From NCBI RefSeq assembly GCF_024223415.1, contig NZ_CP100500.1: a stretch of 64,000 bases of DNA; one strand, written 5' to 3'. A program made the position numbers and the translations under genes. The notes below the pieces were generated by a model that was not told where the DNA came from, did not search any database, and saw only the letters and a list, made by a program, of their open reading frames with translations. Origin of the DNA: Escherichia coli (lineage in GTDB: Bacteria > Pseudomonadota > Gammaproteobacteria > Enterobacterales > Enterobacteriaceae). This document shows positions 13,190-58,297 of the stretch, in pieces (within the stretch, counting starts at the first letter, position 1; each line of letters opens with the position of its first letter).

Positions 13190-13645
13190 TTATTCAACAC
13201 CTGAATCCCCCGCAGCTTCTCTCCCCTTTATAAAACGCCCCTTCCGGAATCCAGACCGCTGCAGTGCACGACGAAGATGACCGTATACCGTCTTGTCATT
13301 CTGCCCCGTCTCTTCTGTAATCTCCGCAATACTTAAACCTCTGTAATACCGGTTCAGTACCGCTCTGCGCTCTTCCAGCGTCAACACACCTCCGGCCGCT
13401 CTCAGATTCAGCATCGACTTATTCAGAATACAGCAGGCCTCTCCGGTAAAAAGAATACGAACAATATCTGTATACTCATCATCACAGAATACAAAATAAT
13501 ATCTGAATGACCTGCCTGACTGCACCCTTCTTCTGTCTGATATGGCATCTTCTATATATCTGATTCGACTGCTTACGGTTCCAAATATCTCTCGCAGGGC
13601 TTTTTCAAAATAAATATCTCTCGTCGCCAGGATTATATCCAGCAT
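13190..13645 (-). CDS. Small protein with sigma-70 region-4 / LuxR-type HTH (putative transcriptional regulator)
   Basis: 151 aa; C-terminal LTLEERRAVLNRYYRGLSIAEITEETGQNDKTVYGHLRRALQRS resembles ECF sigma region 4. Confidence 0.5.
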   Translation of the reverse strand: MLDIILATRDIYFEKALREIFGTVSSRIRYIEDAISDRRRVQSGRSFRYYFVFCDDEYTDIVRILFTGEACCILNKSMLNLRAAGGVLTLEERRAVLNRYYRGLSIAEITEETGQNDKTVYGHLRRALQRSGFRKGRFIKGREAAGDSGVE

Positions 13646-13705: not shown

Positions 13706-14833
13706 TCAGAACTCAAAATTCACACCAGCATTCCACGATGCGGATGACCCACCTGCAGCAACTGCAACTTTTCCTGCCACATTCTCTGTGAAACGGTAGC
13801 CCACGCCCACCGCAATGGCCTGCTCATCACGGTAACCACCAACGGCTGCTGTCGCGTTAAATTTTCCAACACTGTATGGCTGGAAAAGACCGGCCAGTGC
13901 CGCGCTCTGGGCTGCACTCTCCCTTAACTCCTTCCGGTTCTCTTTAATCTGCTCCTGCATATTATTCATTCTCTCTGTCGCCATCTTCTGCCAGGCTTCC
14001 GTCAAATCCAGACGATGACTGTTATTCCTTATCGCTGCTGTATTTGAGGCTATTGCTGCATCCGTCTGCGCCCTGTTCTTCACAAGCACATCGCTGAGAT
14101 GTTCTGCCTGGCTTTTCACCTCGTTACGGACAGTACGCACACTGCTGTCTGTATATGTACGCGTCTCGTCCAGAACATCCGACTTCACCGCATCCGTGTA
14201 TTCCTGCGCAGAAGCCCTGGCAGCTGTAATATTACCGTTAAGTCTGTTTTCTGCCGATTCCACTCGACTCTTAGCATCAGCAACAGCATCACGGTAGACA
14301 GCTCCTATCTCACCGCGCAGGGCATCCCCCGACTCCCGTACAGCATCTGCAATGGCGTTGTCCATCTGTCCTTTTGTGGCCGCATCACTATCCTTAACAC
14401 CATCTGAAACATTTATAATCCGGCGGGTTTCCGGTGCACCATCAACTGAAAATCCATATCCTGAAGGACCGGCCCCTACAGAAAGTACATTGCTTTCTCC
14501 ATTCACCTGAGAGCCATACCCCAGAGCGACACTGTTGTCTGCATTAAAAACAGCTGTATTATTTCCCACAGCCATGGATTTATCCGCATCCCAAATTATT
14601 GCATCGGAACCAACAGCAAAGTTTTTTCCAGTAACACTACCATCACTGTTAAAATTTCCATTTCTGTCAACCACAGTTGCACTTTCAAGTGAATGAGTGC
14701 CATTATCAATCCAGATAATACCCGTCGATGACTCAGTAAGTGTTTTATGAGCCAAAGCCTGAGATGAGAGCAGCAGGGCCACACTCACTGCCAGCGCGCT
14801 TTTCTTTAAAAAAGCATCACGTCTTTTAAGCAT
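13706..14833 (-). CDS. Trimeric autotransporter adhesin with YadA-like C-terminal anchor (Eib-like immunoglobulin-binding protein family candidate)
   Basis: ATG at 14833 gives 375 aa with signal peptide MLKRRDAFLKKSALAVSVALLLSSQALA, coiled-coil stalk, and C-terminal anchor ending ..WNAGVNFEF. Confidence 0.7.
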   Translation of the reverse strand: MLKRRDAFLKKSALAVSVALLLSSQALAHKTLTESSTGIIWIDNGTHSLESATVVDRNGNFNSDGSVTGKNFAVGSDAIIWDADKSMAVGNNTAVFNADNSVALGYGSQVNGESNVLSVGAGPSGYGFSVDGAPETRRIINVSDGVKDSDAATKGQMDNAIADAVRESGDALRGEIGAVYRDAVADAKSRVESAENRLNGNITAARASAQEYTDAVKSDVLDETRTYTDSSVRTVRNEVKSQAEHLSDVLVKNRAQTDAAIASNTAAIRNNSHRLDLTEAWQKMATERMNNMQEQIKENRKELRESAAQSAALAGLFQPYSVGKFNATAAVGGYRDEQAIAVGVGYRFTENVAGKVAVAAGGSSASWNAGVNFEF

Positions 14834-15237
14834 TCTGTTATTCTCCTGTATTATTACTTCACCAGCCAGAACGGTAGTGCGGAGCAAAAATACAGTGATA
14901 AGAATCCTCTTTTATTAATTTAATAATATCAGGAATATTATTGTGTATAATATGCGCCCTCAATTTAAGCAGCAGAAAAGCAATGACGCGAAAATCATTA
15001 AAATACATAAAGATAAAACATCATAACTATAATTATAATAAGCGCGCTTATTTTAGCATCTGAACATTTAAAGTACTGCTATCACAAAACAATAAAAATC
15101 CTGGGTAATATCTCTGATGATTGAATGAGAAATTCACGATGTCTGGTGAGAATTCTGTTCAAAACGAGGAATGCAGACGTACACGTGGCACGCACCACGT
15201 GATCCGTAGAAAAGCCTCTTGTTACGAATTTCGTAAA

Positions 15238-15268
15238 CCGCACGTCTGTCTGGTCGTGCGGATTTTTT
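15238..15268 (+). terminator. Intrinsic-terminator-like hairpin on plus strand in Eib / tail-fibre intergenic region
   Basis: CCGCACG..CGTGCGG stem then ATTTTTTAT. Confidence 0.4.
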
Positions 15269-15454
15269 ATCCGTCAACTTCACATGAAACCCGCCAGAGC
15301 ACTGTTTCCGGATTCAGACATCAGGCATATTATCATCCACAATATCGTGAACAAGATCACCTTTTTGCAATTCCTTTATTGATCGAAAGCAGTTAATCAC
15401 TGAAATTAATTACCGGAGTGAAAGCATTACTGCATAATAAATATAGATCCTTGC

Positions 15455-15488
15455 CCCCCTCTGACAGAATTTTCAGAGGGGTTTTTTT
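15455..15488 (+). terminator. Strong intrinsic-terminator-like hairpin (plus strand) convergent on tail-fibre operon end
   Basis: CCCCTCTGA..TCAGAGGGG stem followed by T8. Confidence 0.5.
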
Positions 15489-15496
15489 TATCAGTT

Positions 15497-16072
15497 TCAC
15501 CATCCAACCCTGTACGCCAGAATGGTTTCACTGTCACTCAGTTCTGCTATTGCCTTTTTCATCTCCCTTTGCCTTATATGTATTTCAAGGCCTTTCCTGA
15601 ACATCGCTTTACCAGCAGCATCACTCAGGGATATCAGTTCATCTGCCGTCATCGGTACATCATTATTCTCTGCGTCCGTCCAGAAAAATCCTTCCGGCAA
15701 CACTCCGCCTCTGGCCGCTGATGCCGACATTCCAAGACGTGTCATGGCTTCCTTTCCATAATCCCATTTCCGTCCTCTGTGCTCAAAAACATACCCTGAC
15801 GCCTCCATCGCATCACGCCAGGCATTTATCTCCGCGTTTTTCATCCTGCGTGCTTCTTCCACAGCCATATCATCATTTGCCCGGTACTCACCTACCGGCC
15901 CTGCATCACCTCTTATGCAGGCTTCAAATATTTCACGACCGTAAGACTCAGGATCATCCGCACTTGCTGTAAATACACATTCTGTTTCCGCGTCTGAAAA
16001 CTTCACTATACAGTTTATGGTCGTATGACCCCTGTCAGCCCACACTGGTGACGTGATTTTATCGACCTTCAT
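15497..16072 (-). CDS. Hypothetical protein in tail-fibre assembly (tfa) position
   Basis: 191 aa ORF immediately downstream of side tail fibre gene; assignment by position only. Confidence 0.4.
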   Translation of the reverse strand: MKVDKITSPVWADRGHTTINCIVKFSDAETECVFTASADDPESYGREIFEACIRGDAGPVGEYRANDDMAVEEARRMKNAEINAWRDAMEASGYVFEHRGRKWDYGKEAMTRLGMSASAARGGVLPEGFFWTDAENNDVPMTADELISLSDAAGKAMFRKGLEIHIRQREMKKAIAELSDSETILAYRVGW

Positions 16073-16086
16073 TCATTTCTCCCCTG

Positions 16087-17892
16087 TCACCGTATTCTCT
16101 GAAACAGGCCCCAAATCGTCCCAATGATATTATTCACTGTCATGTTAGTTGTGCATAACATCCATGTACCAAGCATAGGATTGCCAAATAAAAAGCGGAT
16201 ATCTGTAAGTTTATCCGATGACGACGACACAATAACGGCCTGTCTGATACGATACCCGGGTATTTCACGGGTATTTGTTACCTCATGATTTCGTTCTATG
16301 ATCCCCAGAACATAAGACCCCACGGAATAAACACTTCCGACGCTCGCTGGCTGCCCCGGCTGTCCCTGTGGTCCTGCCGGGCCGCGTTCACCTGTATACC
16401 CTCTTGGCCCCTGAGGACCTGCCGGGCCGCGTTCACCTGTATCCCCCTTTAGTCCCTGTGGACCTGCCGGACCGCGTTCACCTGTATCGCCCTTTGGTCC
16501 CTGTGGACCACGCTCCCCCTGGGCTCCCAGCTCTTTCCATTCAGACCAGGGGCCATTACCGGTAAAATTACCAGTAACAGTTCTTACGAACTTTCGTGGT
16601 GGGTTCCAGGTTGTATATTCATGCTGGCAATATCCCCATGCACCAACTCTTACCTGAAGATAACCCGCTCTCTGAATCGGATAATTATTTTCTCGTGTAG
16701 CCCCACTGTCTGATGGCTGATAATAATCACCCTGATCGGTCACTCGTCCCAGTCGGTTCAGATCACCATTCAGCAGTTGTCCACGGGCTGACTCTCCTCT
16801 TGGTCCCTGAGGACCTGCCGGACCGCGTGCTCCTGTTTCACCTTTTGCTCCCTGTGGACCTGTCGGACCGCGTTCACCTGTTTCACCTTTTGGTCCCTGT
16901 GGTCCTGCCGGGCCGCGTTCACCTGTTTCACCCTTTGCTCCCTGTGGACCTTCCGGGCCACGTTCACCTGTATCCCCCTTTGGTCCCTGAGGACCTGCCG
17001 GGCCACGTTCACCTGTATCGCCCTTTGATCCCTGTGGACCTGCCGGGCCGCGTTCACCTGTATCCCCCTTTGGTCCCTGTGGACCTCCCGGATCTCCTTT
17101 ATCCCCCTTAGGGCCTTTTTCTCCTCGCTCACCCTTTTCTCCCTTCAGACCCTGAGGGCCTTCCGGACCACGTGCACCTGTTTCGCCCTTTGCTCCCTGT
17201 GGACCTGCCGGGCCGCGTTCACCTGTTTCGCCCTTTGCTCCCTGTGGACCTGCCGGGCCGCGTGCACCTGTTTCACCCTTTGGTCCCTGTGGACCTGCCG
17301 GGCCGCGTTCACCTGTATCGCCCTTTAGTCCCTGTGGACCTGCCGGACCGCGTTCACCTGTTTCACCTTTTGGTCCCTGTGGTCCTGCCGGGCCACGTGC
17401 TCCTGTTTCACCTTTTGGCCCCTGTGGCCCGGTAATGCCTCTTTCACCACGAGCGCCGGTATCCCCTTTCTCTCCTCGTGGTCCCCGGGCAGATGCTGCT
17501 CGTTTCCGGGCTTCCTCCGCCTCAGATGCCGCGGACTCTGCTCTGTGCAGTATGGACTGCACCACAGCCTCCAGCTCTGACAACGCCTTCGGATAATAAG
17601 GAGCATCTTCCAGCTCCATCAGAAATTTATTCAGTGTTCCCGGTGAAGAATCCTCCCTGACCACGATATCTCCCACATACGAAGGACGGTAACCTTCTGT
17701 ATTGAGTGTCACCCTGTATATTCCTGGCTCCACATCCATACTGTAACTCCCCGTCTCTTCCGGCATGCCATAAGCCACTGTCGTGGCGATGACTGTCTCG
17801 CTGGTTCTCTTCGCTTTCAGCTCAATAATGCATCCCGGTACCGGTTTTCCGGTTCCGTCCCTCAGCACGCCTGAAATTTTTACAGCCGCCAT
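16087..17892 (-). CDS. Side tail fibre protein (lambda Stf-like N-terminus) with collagen-like Gly-X-Y repeats
   Basis: 601 aa; N-terminus [18 protein letters not shown].. resembles lambda Stf; long [19 protein letters not shown] collagen triple-helix repeats. Confidence 0.85.
16320..17510. repeat. Tandem collagen-like coding repeats (27/45-bp periodic units) within the tail fibre gene
   Basis: Repeated GGTCCCTGTGGACCTGCCGGRCCGCGTTCACCTGT units on plus strand. Confidence 0.85.
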
Positions 17893-56940: not shown

Positions 56941-57189
56941 ATGGCAAGACTTATTCTGCTCACTGAGTGGGCAAAAGAGGAATTCAGTGAACCGGTCCCT
57001 ACTCCGGGTACGTTAAGTAAATACGCTAAAGCCGGAATGATATTTCCTCTCCCCAAAAAAGTAGGAAGGCACTGGCGAGTGGATCCACGCGCTCGCTTTG
57101 TCGGAATGGTAAACAAGCCGGAGGTGATCGCCACAGATCACCCTGCTTTGAAGAGGATACTGGAAGATGGCGCGCCCGCGAAAATATAA
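56941..57189 (+). CDS. xis: Excisionase-like protein
   Basis: 82 aa basic protein overlapping int start. Confidence 0.65.
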   Translation: MARLILLTEWAKEEFSEPVPTPGTLSKYAKAGMIFPLPKKVGRHWRVDPRARFVGMVNKPEVIATDHPALKRILEDGAPAKI

Positions 57190-58297
57190 AACCGATGTTC
57201 CGGGTTTATCTCCGTATTTTGACAAAAGAAATAACAAAGTTTACTGGCGTTACAGGCATCCCATCACAGGTAAAAATCATGGACTCGGCAGTATTGACCA
57301 GAAACTGGCGGAAACCATTGCAGCAGAAGCGAACAGCCGTCTTGCCAGACAACAAATGGAGCAAATTCTCAGTCTGCAGGAGAAAATTATTAGTGATACC
57401 GGCGGCGCATCAACCGTTTCCATTTTTCTGAATAATTACAGAAAAATTCAACAGGAAAGATATGAGAACGGAGAGATCAAACTCAGCACGCTGAAGCAAA
57501 AAGCGGCTCCTCTCAGGGTGTTTGATGAACGTTTTGGAGCCAGGCCGCTAGATGCCATAACCGTAAAAGATGTGGTATCGGTGCTGGAAGAATACAAGGC
57601 AAAGGGACATAACAGAATGGGACAAATTTTCAGGAAGGTATTGATCGATGTTTTCCGGGAGGCTCAACAAACGGGTGATGTTCCGCCAGGCTTTAACCCG
57701 GCTGAATCGGCAAAAAAACCGCAAGTGCGGATATCAAGACAGCGACTGACTTTTGATGAGTGGATGATGATTTATAACGCAGCGGAAAAGGATGGTTACT
57801 TTTTACAGCGCGGCATGCTGCTGGCACTGATGACGGGCCAGCGTCTTTCGGATATTTGCAAAATGCAGTTTTCGGATATCCGGGATGGTTACCTTCATGT
57901 CGAACAGCAAAAAACAGGAGCCCGGATAGCCATTCCTCTGGCTCTGCGTTGCGACAAATTAAATCTTACCCTGGGTGACGTGGTGTCATCCTGTCGTGAT
58001 TACATCCTTAGTCCGTGGTTATTGCACCATCATCACGCTAAGGGGATGGGTAAGCGCGGCGGGATGGTTAAACCAGCAACATTAACAGTCGCATTTAAAA
58101 AAGCCCGGGATTCTGTGGATTACAACTGGCGTGCTAATGGCACGCCACCCTCTTTCCATGAGCAAAGATCTTTATCAGAACGATTGTTCAGAGAACAGGG
58201 AATTGATACCAAAATTTTGCTGGGCCATTCGAATCAAAAAATGACCGATATTTACAACGACGCACGCGGTAAAGAGTGGAAAAAACTGGTTATTTGA
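57167..58297 (+). CDS. int: Tyrosine-type site-specific integrase
   Basis: 376 aa; adjacent to prophage end at ompW 3' end. Confidence 0.88.
   Translation: MARPRKYKTDVPGLSPYFDKRNNKVYWRYRHPITGKNHGLGSIDQKLAETIAAEANSRLARQQMEQILSLQEKIISDTGGASTVSIFLNNYRKIQQERYENGEIKLSTLKQKAAPLRVFDERFGARPLDAITVKDVVSVLEEYKAKGHNRMGQIFRKVLIDVFREAQQTGDVPPGFNPAESAKKPQVRISRQRLTFDEWMMIYNAAEKDGYFLQRGMLLALMTGQRLSDICKMQFSDIRDGYLHVEQQKTGARIAIPLALRCDKLNLTLGDVVSSCRDYILSPWLLHHHHAKGMGKRGGMVKPATLTVAFKKARDSVDYNWRANGTPPSFHEQRSLSERLFREQGIDTKILLGHSNQKMTDIYNDARGKEWKKLVI

Follow-up and report, generated by a model that had tools for sequence, protein, structure and literature searches.

The gap between an Eib-like adhesin gene and the tail-fibre assembly gene tfa of a lambdoid prophage in Escherichia coli was analysed within a stretch of 64,000 nucleotides of contig NZ_CP100500.1 (assembly GCF_024223415.1), referred to here as the window. 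The simplest and a probable explanation for two intrinsic terminators in this gap, T1 (15238-15268) and T2 (15456-15489), is that they survive from two plus-strand genes which formerly pointed towards the tail operon and have since been truncated. Each of them is located shortly past the stop of a decayed plus-strand frame, and their presence can thus be explained without a small RNA (sRNA). A reading made from the letters of the window alone had described an AT-rich gap of about 660 bp with two intrinsic terminators on the plus strand, antisense to the genes on either side. The gap measures 663 bp (14834-15496) with a GC content of 31-42%, and folding as well as terminator scans bear out the two terminators.

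T1 is formed by a 7-bp stem with five GC pairs (CCGCACG at 15238-15244 with CGTGCGG at 15255-15261) and a loop of 10 nt, followed by an A and a run of six T (15263-15268); its fold has a dG of -14.3 kcal/mol (z -2.1). T2 has a 9-bp stem with six GC pairs (CCCCTCTGA at 15456-15464 with TCAGAGGGG at 15473-15481) and a tail of eight T (15482-15489), with a fold dG of -16.7 and a z of -2.9. It is the top-ranked match of the standard terminator scan. T1 is absent from that scan because its loop of 10 nt exceeds the limit of 8 nt, and it is listed by our own scan. Both elements display, on the plus strand, the compact GC-rich stem-loop followed by at least 5-6 T that characterizes intrinsic terminators. 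Read on the minus strand, the two hairpins have the A-runs in front of them and no U-run behind (the tails are GGCAAGG for T2 and UUUACGAAAUU for T1), which confirms the plus-strand orientation. T1 and T2 are accordingly oriented towards tfa and are predicted from the sequence as plus-strand intrinsic terminators. The gap was found in ~370 of 5426 complete E. coli genomes (~7%), at ~500 places, with 90-99% identity and never with any annotated feature. Both hairpins are intact in essentially all copies: the T1 stem shows only two singleton substitutions among 29 unique copies, and variants of T2 retain the stem and the T-run despite indels.

Most copies of the gap are longer than the one in the window. 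In the alignment of the 29 unique sequences, 84 extra bases between 15181 and 15182 are present in 26 copies and absent in three. This segment is bounded by a 9-bp direct repeat, CACGTGGCA, and the single-piece and two-piece matches agree on it. In the window, in the prophage L001 and in a few other copies, a single left copy of the repeat (15182-15190) marks the junction of the 84-bp deletion.

Upstream of T1, positions 15121-15190 of the plus strand hold what is left of a ykgJ-family (CxxCxxCC) gene, a relic of its 3' end. The relic reads NEKFTMSGENSVQNEECRRTRG in the window and, in the majority form, continues with RYGLPPI and then a stop. The full form (plus strand 15130-15189 together with the 84-bp segment) reads KFTMSGENSVQNEECRRTRGRYGLPPI up to the stop, i.e. 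~27 codons, and aligns co-linearly to a 109-aa YkgJ-family protein over residues 83-109 and the stop, with 16 of 27 residues identical (59%). In tblastn searches, the match between the relic and the intact phage ykgJ-like protein has an E-value of 4e-9 in the local search and of 1e-6 against all fetched loci, and the local alignment score of the relic at the DNA level is 42 versus a maximum of 35 in 200 shuffles. The intact ykgJ-like protein itself matches PF03692 at 5.7e-12, and the C-terminal tail motif of the relic is also found in host YkgJ proteins. The cysteine-cluster domain (CxxCxxCC...C) is missing from the relic, of which only the post-domain segment (residues 83-109) is left, and two stops, TGA TGA, are located directly 5' of it at 15115-15120. 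We therefore regard the relic as a pseudogene fragment, not as a family member. T1 is the first plus-strand terminator past its stop, 108 nt downstream in the majority form.

To place the relic in a wider context, 49 IMG/VR loci with a tfa homologue were collected and the region downstream of each tfa stop was scanned. In two of them (L058 and L060), the next gene after tfa is an intact 109-aa YkgJ-family gene on the opposite strand, convergent with tfa. The same arrangement is annotated in RefSeq entry NZ_CP015240, at a prophage end beside potB, where a 'DUF4376 domain-containing protein' is convergent with a 'YkgJ family cysteine cluster protein' (A5956_RS26145), and the intact convergent ykgJ-like/tfa pair is present in 98 E. 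coli genomes. In L058, L060 and NZ_CP015240, the ykgJ-like gene has a sole terminator candidate, an antisense-facing hairpin at a distance of 12-35 nt from the tfa stop; in the intact loci, the hairpin abutting the tfa stop sits 128 nt past the stop of the ykgJ-like gene. Position and orientation relative to the DUF4376 gene tfa are thus the same as for the relic, the C-terminal peptide is homologous down to the stop, and an antisense-facing terminator lies next to the tfa stop, as in the window. The loci differ in that the gene is intact (109 aa) with a single terminator in the relatives, whereas the window form has ~27 codons, a non-homologous 3' flank and two terminators around a second relic frame. 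Several other tfa loci keep C-terminal ykgJ stumps only (residues 77-109, 79-109 or 86-109), so the ykgJ-like gene has been truncated recurrently from its 5' side. The ykgJ cargo beside potB (L093, i.e. NZ_CP015240 4835-5164; L058 3587-3913) shares ~81% DNA identity with host ykgJ. Aberrant C-termini in the E. coli YkgJ proteins P0002, P0009 and P0011 suggest recombination or insertion at the 3' end of ykgJ. A match to the Rfam sok antitoxin at L058 683-841 (62.9 bits, E 4.8e-12) points to a hok/sok module in that prophage contig.

The second decayed reading frame is located between T1 and T2 (15284-15382, plus strand). It ends with IIIHNIVNKITFLQFLY and a stop, 73 nt before T2, which itself is 7 nt from the tfa stop codon. 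An informative comparison is provided by L040, a prophage of strain TUM1886 that occupies the same site at yecD: its eib allele and the proximal part of its gap are not those of the window, but it carries window positions 15340-15573 at 97% identity, T2 included. The frame in L040 ends with FITDSIVNQFTFLQFLY and the same stop, and is conserved with the window at the protein level, with synonymous (ATT/ATC, AAT/AAC) and conservative changes. There is no start codon in L040, and two copies of the present type lack the ATG owing to a 1-nt deletion. Judged by this comparison, 15284-15382 probably represents the C-terminal remnant of another convergent gene, a step that is weaker than the one for ykgJ. 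Since L040 carries T2 beside another eib allele, T2 is linked to the tfa backbone; the ykgJ relic and T1 are linked to the present eib allele.

Juhala and co-workers are said to have described, in 2000, phage 'morons' as autonomous promoter-gene-terminator cassettes inserted between phage genes. The adhesin and the adjacent helix-turn-helix (HTH) gene resemble such a cassette: they lie at the end of the late operon, are AT-rich, have their own upstream region and move with it between phage backbones and into non-phage islands. The opposite-facing terminators, in contrast, are not predicted by the moron model and are explained by what the cassette displaced. The gap would consist of the upstream region of an eib-type adhesin moron and the decayed 3' ends of two genes. 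T1 would be left over from the YkgJ-family gene, of which only the last ~27 codons survive because the adhesin cassette replaced the rest. T2 would be the terminator of the second plus-strand gene, whose C-terminal codons are left at 15284-15382, and would occupy, at the tfa stop, the same place as the terminator of the intact convergent ykgJ-like gene in relatives. The window copy would later have lost the 84 bp between the two CACGTGGCA repeats. What can be read directly from the sequences is that the relic is homologous to ykgJ, that relatives have the arrangement intact, that the 84 bp are deleted and that an antisense-facing terminator recurs at the tfa stop. From this we infer that T1 and T2 were the native terminators of the two genes; both would still be able to stop plus-strand transcription from the AT-rich adhesin promoter region before it enters the late genes antisense.

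A number of observations weigh against this history. No full-length YkgJ protein with the exact C-terminus of the relic was found, the sole match being a spurious open reading frame (ORF) of the deletion form, and the identity between the relic and known YkgJ C-termini amounts to only 59%. The stretch from the stop of the relic to T1 shares no homology with what follows the intact ykgJ-like gene of the phages on its 3' side. With neither an exact parent nor a homologous flank, the case for T1 as the native ykgJ terminator is one of position. For the second frame, no parent was found by a motif search of all loci, tblastn against phages, a protein word search or a search of E. coli DNA, and its coding origin is drawn from one pairwise comparison over ~17 codons. 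The conservation of the hairpins in essentially all copies is also what a functional RNA would predict. Finally, the core of the gap (15081-15428; at least 95% identity, 370 genomes) is more conserved than its flanks, which could mean a present function. Specifically, 15081-15290 is at least 95% identical in all 370 matching genomes and 14835-15080 is 80-90% identical in 243 of 371. On the sequences compared, the higher conservation of the core would be equally well explained by a recombination tract in the adhesin promoter region.

Terminators facing against the late operon recur at tfa in other phages. Among 18 distinct tfa-downstream sequences, 12 have an A-run and a GC-rich hairpin, i.e. 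an antisense-facing terminator, within 40 nt of the stop. These 12 comprise about five unrelated hairpin sequences, and a terminator that is sense-facing as well is found only in the bidirectional GER2 type. In most of the 49 IMG/VR loci, a T2-like A-run and GC-rich hairpin is positioned 9-16 nt past the tfa stop. The Eib prophages of ECOR-9 (P-EibA/C/D/E; AF151091, AF151674-6; Sandt and Hill) share the order lom, tail fibre, orf-191, gap, eib and orf-156-type HTH gene with the present prophage, and PhiR5_1 and GER2 likewise have the same gene order. In each of them an antisense-facing terminator directly follows tfa (orf-191), with two, 130 nt apart, in P-EibA and PhiR5_1. The ECOR-9 prophages differ in their gaps (360-680 bp), which, like those of PhiR5_1 and GER2, are not homologous to the present one, and in the N-terminus and signal peptide of the adhesin; no ykgJ relic was detected in them by tblastn. 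The tandem antisense-facing terminators after orf-191/tfa are located at 3244-3261 and 3373-3390 of L010 (P-EibA) and at 2353-2370 and 2482-2499 of L041, with a third hairpin between them in both. Phage lambda has no antisense-facing terminator after tfa, so such a terminator is not a general lambdoid feature.

Such recurrence agrees with a neighbour that is usually convergent and keeps its 3' end when truncated, and it would also fit selection for an insulator. T1 and T2, whatever their origin, might accordingly be maintained as insulators, with selection keeping an antisense-facing terminator at the end of tfa against transcription from downstream cargo or the host. We regard this as a possible but rather unlikely explanation. 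It would account for the finding that some five unrelated hairpins occupy the same place in the same orientation, 9-16 nt past the tfa stop, in different phages, and that the pattern extends to non-homologous gaps (P-EibA/PhiR5_1, GER2, the ATGGGGGA type and, weakly, P-EibD). In several loci, another antisense-facing terminator follows after 140-290 nt, and the persistence of the T2 stem and T-run in spite of indels points the same way. The pattern is, however, also expected passively if the neighbour is usually convergent and its 3' end survives truncation, and six of the 18 tfa-downstream classes have no such terminator, nor does lambda.

The sequence-only reading had taken the terminators to suggest one or two sRNAs. 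One or two plus-strand sRNAs would end at T1 and/or T2; they might be relic 3' untranslated regions (3'-UTRs) that have been taken over as Hfq-type or cis-antisense regulators, acting on the adhesin or on late transcripts that read through. The terminators themselves speak for such RNAs, as they are canonical and compact with U6-U8 tails. In addition, T1 is preceded by two further structured elements. A hairpin termed H3 (CACGTGG-N6-CCACGTG, 15182-15201) is predicted by the fold in the window, and a perfect 15-nt palindrome, TTACGAATTTCGTAA (15222-15236), which is located between H3 and T1, likewise folds into a hairpin and is the same in every copy. The succession of H3, palindrome and T1 resembles an sRNA body, and the core is invariant or nearly so across the 370 genomes. 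In the majority form, TTTACA-17-TACAAA, read by eye, lies ~7 nt 5' of H3 and would give an RNA of ~88 nt. This element, however, lacks the near-invariant final T of the -10 box and is not among the hits of the position weight matrix (PWM), and the 84 bp that hold it, in the middle of the RNA ending at T1, are deleted in the window and other copies.

The searches for an sRNA gene gave little else in its favour. No plus-strand sigma-70-like site above the shuffle background was found in either form of the gap by a promoter scan and our own PWM. A TATAAT-like element had been noted near 14944; a perfect TATAAT is indeed present, at 14946-14951, but without a usable -35 box, and its PWM score of 5.1 compares with a median best score of 10.4 in shuffles. 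Since it has no -35 box and four of the 15 TATAAT matches of the window fall within the AT-rich gap, it carries no weight. A search of the window region against Rfam 15 at E<=1 returned only a terminator-like match of 14.9 bits on the minus strand, and the majority form returned nothing. The 29 unique copies (90-99% identical) show no compensatory stem changes, their two singleton substitutions both breaking pairs, and more divergent homologues of the gap for covariation were not found in the phage collection, IMG/VR or the GTDB representatives. Predicted RNA-RNA duplexes of the T1 and T2 segments with the eib, tfa and stf leaders are unremarkable (best z -2), and no transcript map of eib upstream regions was found in the literature. 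The origin from gene relics already accounts for the terminators, none of these searches supports an sRNA gene, and we hold the proposal of one or two sRNAs to be distinctly unlikely.

Prophage- or 3'-UTR-derived Hfq-binding sRNAs are known, such as EcOnc27 (3' of stx2B) and AgvB and AsxR of O157 prophages (Tree et al. 2014, as cited in PMC12711010). They share with the gap the intergenic location in a prophage and hairpins followed by a Rho-independent terminator with a U-tail. They differ in that their transcripts and Hfq binding have been mapped, whereas the present elements are known from sequence only, with no promoter or family match. More specifically, the 3' end of the ykgJ relic (H3, palindrome and T1; ~88-150 nt) might have been domesticated as a plus-strand regulatory RNA that acts on the adhesin or on late read-through, which we consider improbable. 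If true, the RNA would travel with the adhesin allele and contribute to the switching of Eib between static and agitated growth, and the 84-bp deletion allele of the window would be a natural loss- or change-of-function variant.

Small proteins provide no better explanation of the gap. The overlapping 91-aa ORF, which had been described as spanning the first terminator and as unlikely to be real, indeed covers T1 (15121-15396) and exists in the deletion form only, where the 84-bp deletion fuses the relic frame to downstream non-coding sequence. In the majority form, the frame from ATG 15139 is only 24 codons long. Nearly every substitution in the 24- and 26-codon ORFs changes an amino acid, giving no coding signature. 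A 28-codon ORF has three synonymous versus two non-synonymous changes (p ~0.1) and no Shine-Dalgarno sequence; changes in the 28- and 32-codon frames are mixed and some copies are frameshifted. The hydrophobic 26-aa ORF (15360..15280, minus strand) was considered as a small protein or type I toxin and rejected, as five of five substitutions are non-synonymous and one variant is frameshifted. The 32-aa ORF was likewise rejected as a small protein gene, its ATG being lost through a 1-nt deletion in two copies.

It is also very unlikely that the hairpins function as minus-strand structures of a long adhesin leader or of late read-through RNA, affecting stability, processing or attenuation, with the T-runs being incidental A-runs there: they do fold equally well on that strand, and Sandt and Hill annotated sense-strand stem-loops 5' of eibA, eibC and eibD, but an A5-A8 run directly 5' of the hairpin in several unrelated sequences marks an opposite-strand terminator, and the best eib promoter candidate is located far downstream of the hairpins, near 14928. 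The strong condition dependence of Eib expression would suit such structures; EibG expression switches between static and agitated growth by a mechanism that is not explained (PMC4352079). On the minus strand of the majority form, AATTTTTG comes after H3, which makes this hairpin a minus-strand terminator candidate just past T1, called as such in L006 and L092. In the window, H3 has no minus-strand T-run because the 84-bp deletion removed AATTTTTG, and yet the adhesin gene is intact.

The candidate eib promoter is the best sigma-70-like site of the gap, TTGAGG-17-TAATAT on the minus strand (14935-14963), with a predicted transcription start near 14928 and a leader that would measure ~95 nt. 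The site lies in a segment that is invariant across copies. Its PWM score of 10.4 equals the median best score of shuffles; the site is plausible as an adhesin promoter but not significant. Next to it, a mosaic block (14980-15079) occurs in two alleles that are ~36% divergent, with near-identical flanks. The two alleles are found in 14 and 13 of 27 unique copies, respectively, and 243 of 371 genomes carry the allele that is not present in the window. The block covers a minus-strand promoter-like element, TTCAGA-18-TATTAT (15064..15035), and, going by the two alleles, may represent a promoter-allele swap relevant to variable Eib expression. In the metagenome contig L036, homology ends left of ~14965 with unrelated sequence beyond; this boundary may be an insertion or rearrangement breakpoint within the adhesin promoter region. 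The full form of the gap contains three CACGTG palindromes, two of which are TGCCACGTG sites 84 bp apart. These palindromes and TTACGAATTTCGTAA could be protein-binding sites instead of RNA structures.

The gap is always accompanied by the present adhesin allele and the HTH gene, and carriers, among them the eib-positive strains BEN2908, APEC E19035 and GF4, are common among avian and extra-intestinal isolates. It is found in prophages (L001, L002) and also in degraded islands next to IS elements and a transketolase/ascorbate-PTS locus, where ~85 nt of the tfa 3' end are retained. The phage collection contained no match to the gap and IMG/VR one contig. An invariant 23-mer occurs in none of the GTDB species-representative genomes and in 27 near-identical copies in metagenomes. 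In L005, L007 and L008, and in many genomes, a sul2/ISCR2/aph resistance module truncates the adhesin gene, leaving a 188-aa 'hypothetical protein', and antibiotic-resistance genes thereby adjoin the adhesin upstream region in those genomes.

The prophage is inserted next to yecD (11604-12203, plus strand), which is preceded by aspS (9555-11327, minus strand). A DinI-like gene (12558-12806, plus strand) and the HTH gene, which is sigma-70 region-4-like (13190-13645, minus strand), lie between yecD and the adhesin gene (13706-14833, minus strand). The latter starts with ATG at 14833, has a ribosome-binding site AGGAGA at 14842-14847 and encodes an Eib-like (YadA-like) trimeric autotransporter of 375 aa, with matches to Pfam YadA_anchor (2.2e-16) and to the YadA head and stalk; RefSeq names its homologues 'YadA-like family protein' or 'immunoglobulin-binding protein'. 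On the other side of the gap, tfa (15497-16072, minus strand) encodes a DUF4376 protein of 191 aa (Pfam DUF4376, 1.5e-20) of the orf-191 family of P-Eib prophages, homologous to orf-191A/C/D/E. It is followed by the gene of a collagen-repeat tail fibre (16087-17892, minus strand), whose product has a prophage tail-fibre N-terminal domain and then long stretches of collagen triple-helix repeats (Pfam Collagen, 1.5e-48). The remaining genes of the late operon lie beyond the tail fibre, and the integrase gene is located at 57167-58297.

For prophage annotation, the gap illustrates that an orphan terminator facing the 'wrong' way between prophage genes need not mean an sRNA; here it would mark a former convergent cargo gene. 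Antisense-facing terminators abutting tfa are documented as recurrent in this phage group and can be tested as insulators. With regard to the regulation of Eib, 14834-15080, including the mosaic block, is likely the regulatory part of the gap and the remainder would be relic. A widespread but unannotated segment of 660-750 bp thereby receives a history, in which a ykgJ-like cargo gene would have been displaced by an adhesin cassette, followed by recombination and an 84-bp deletion polymorphism.

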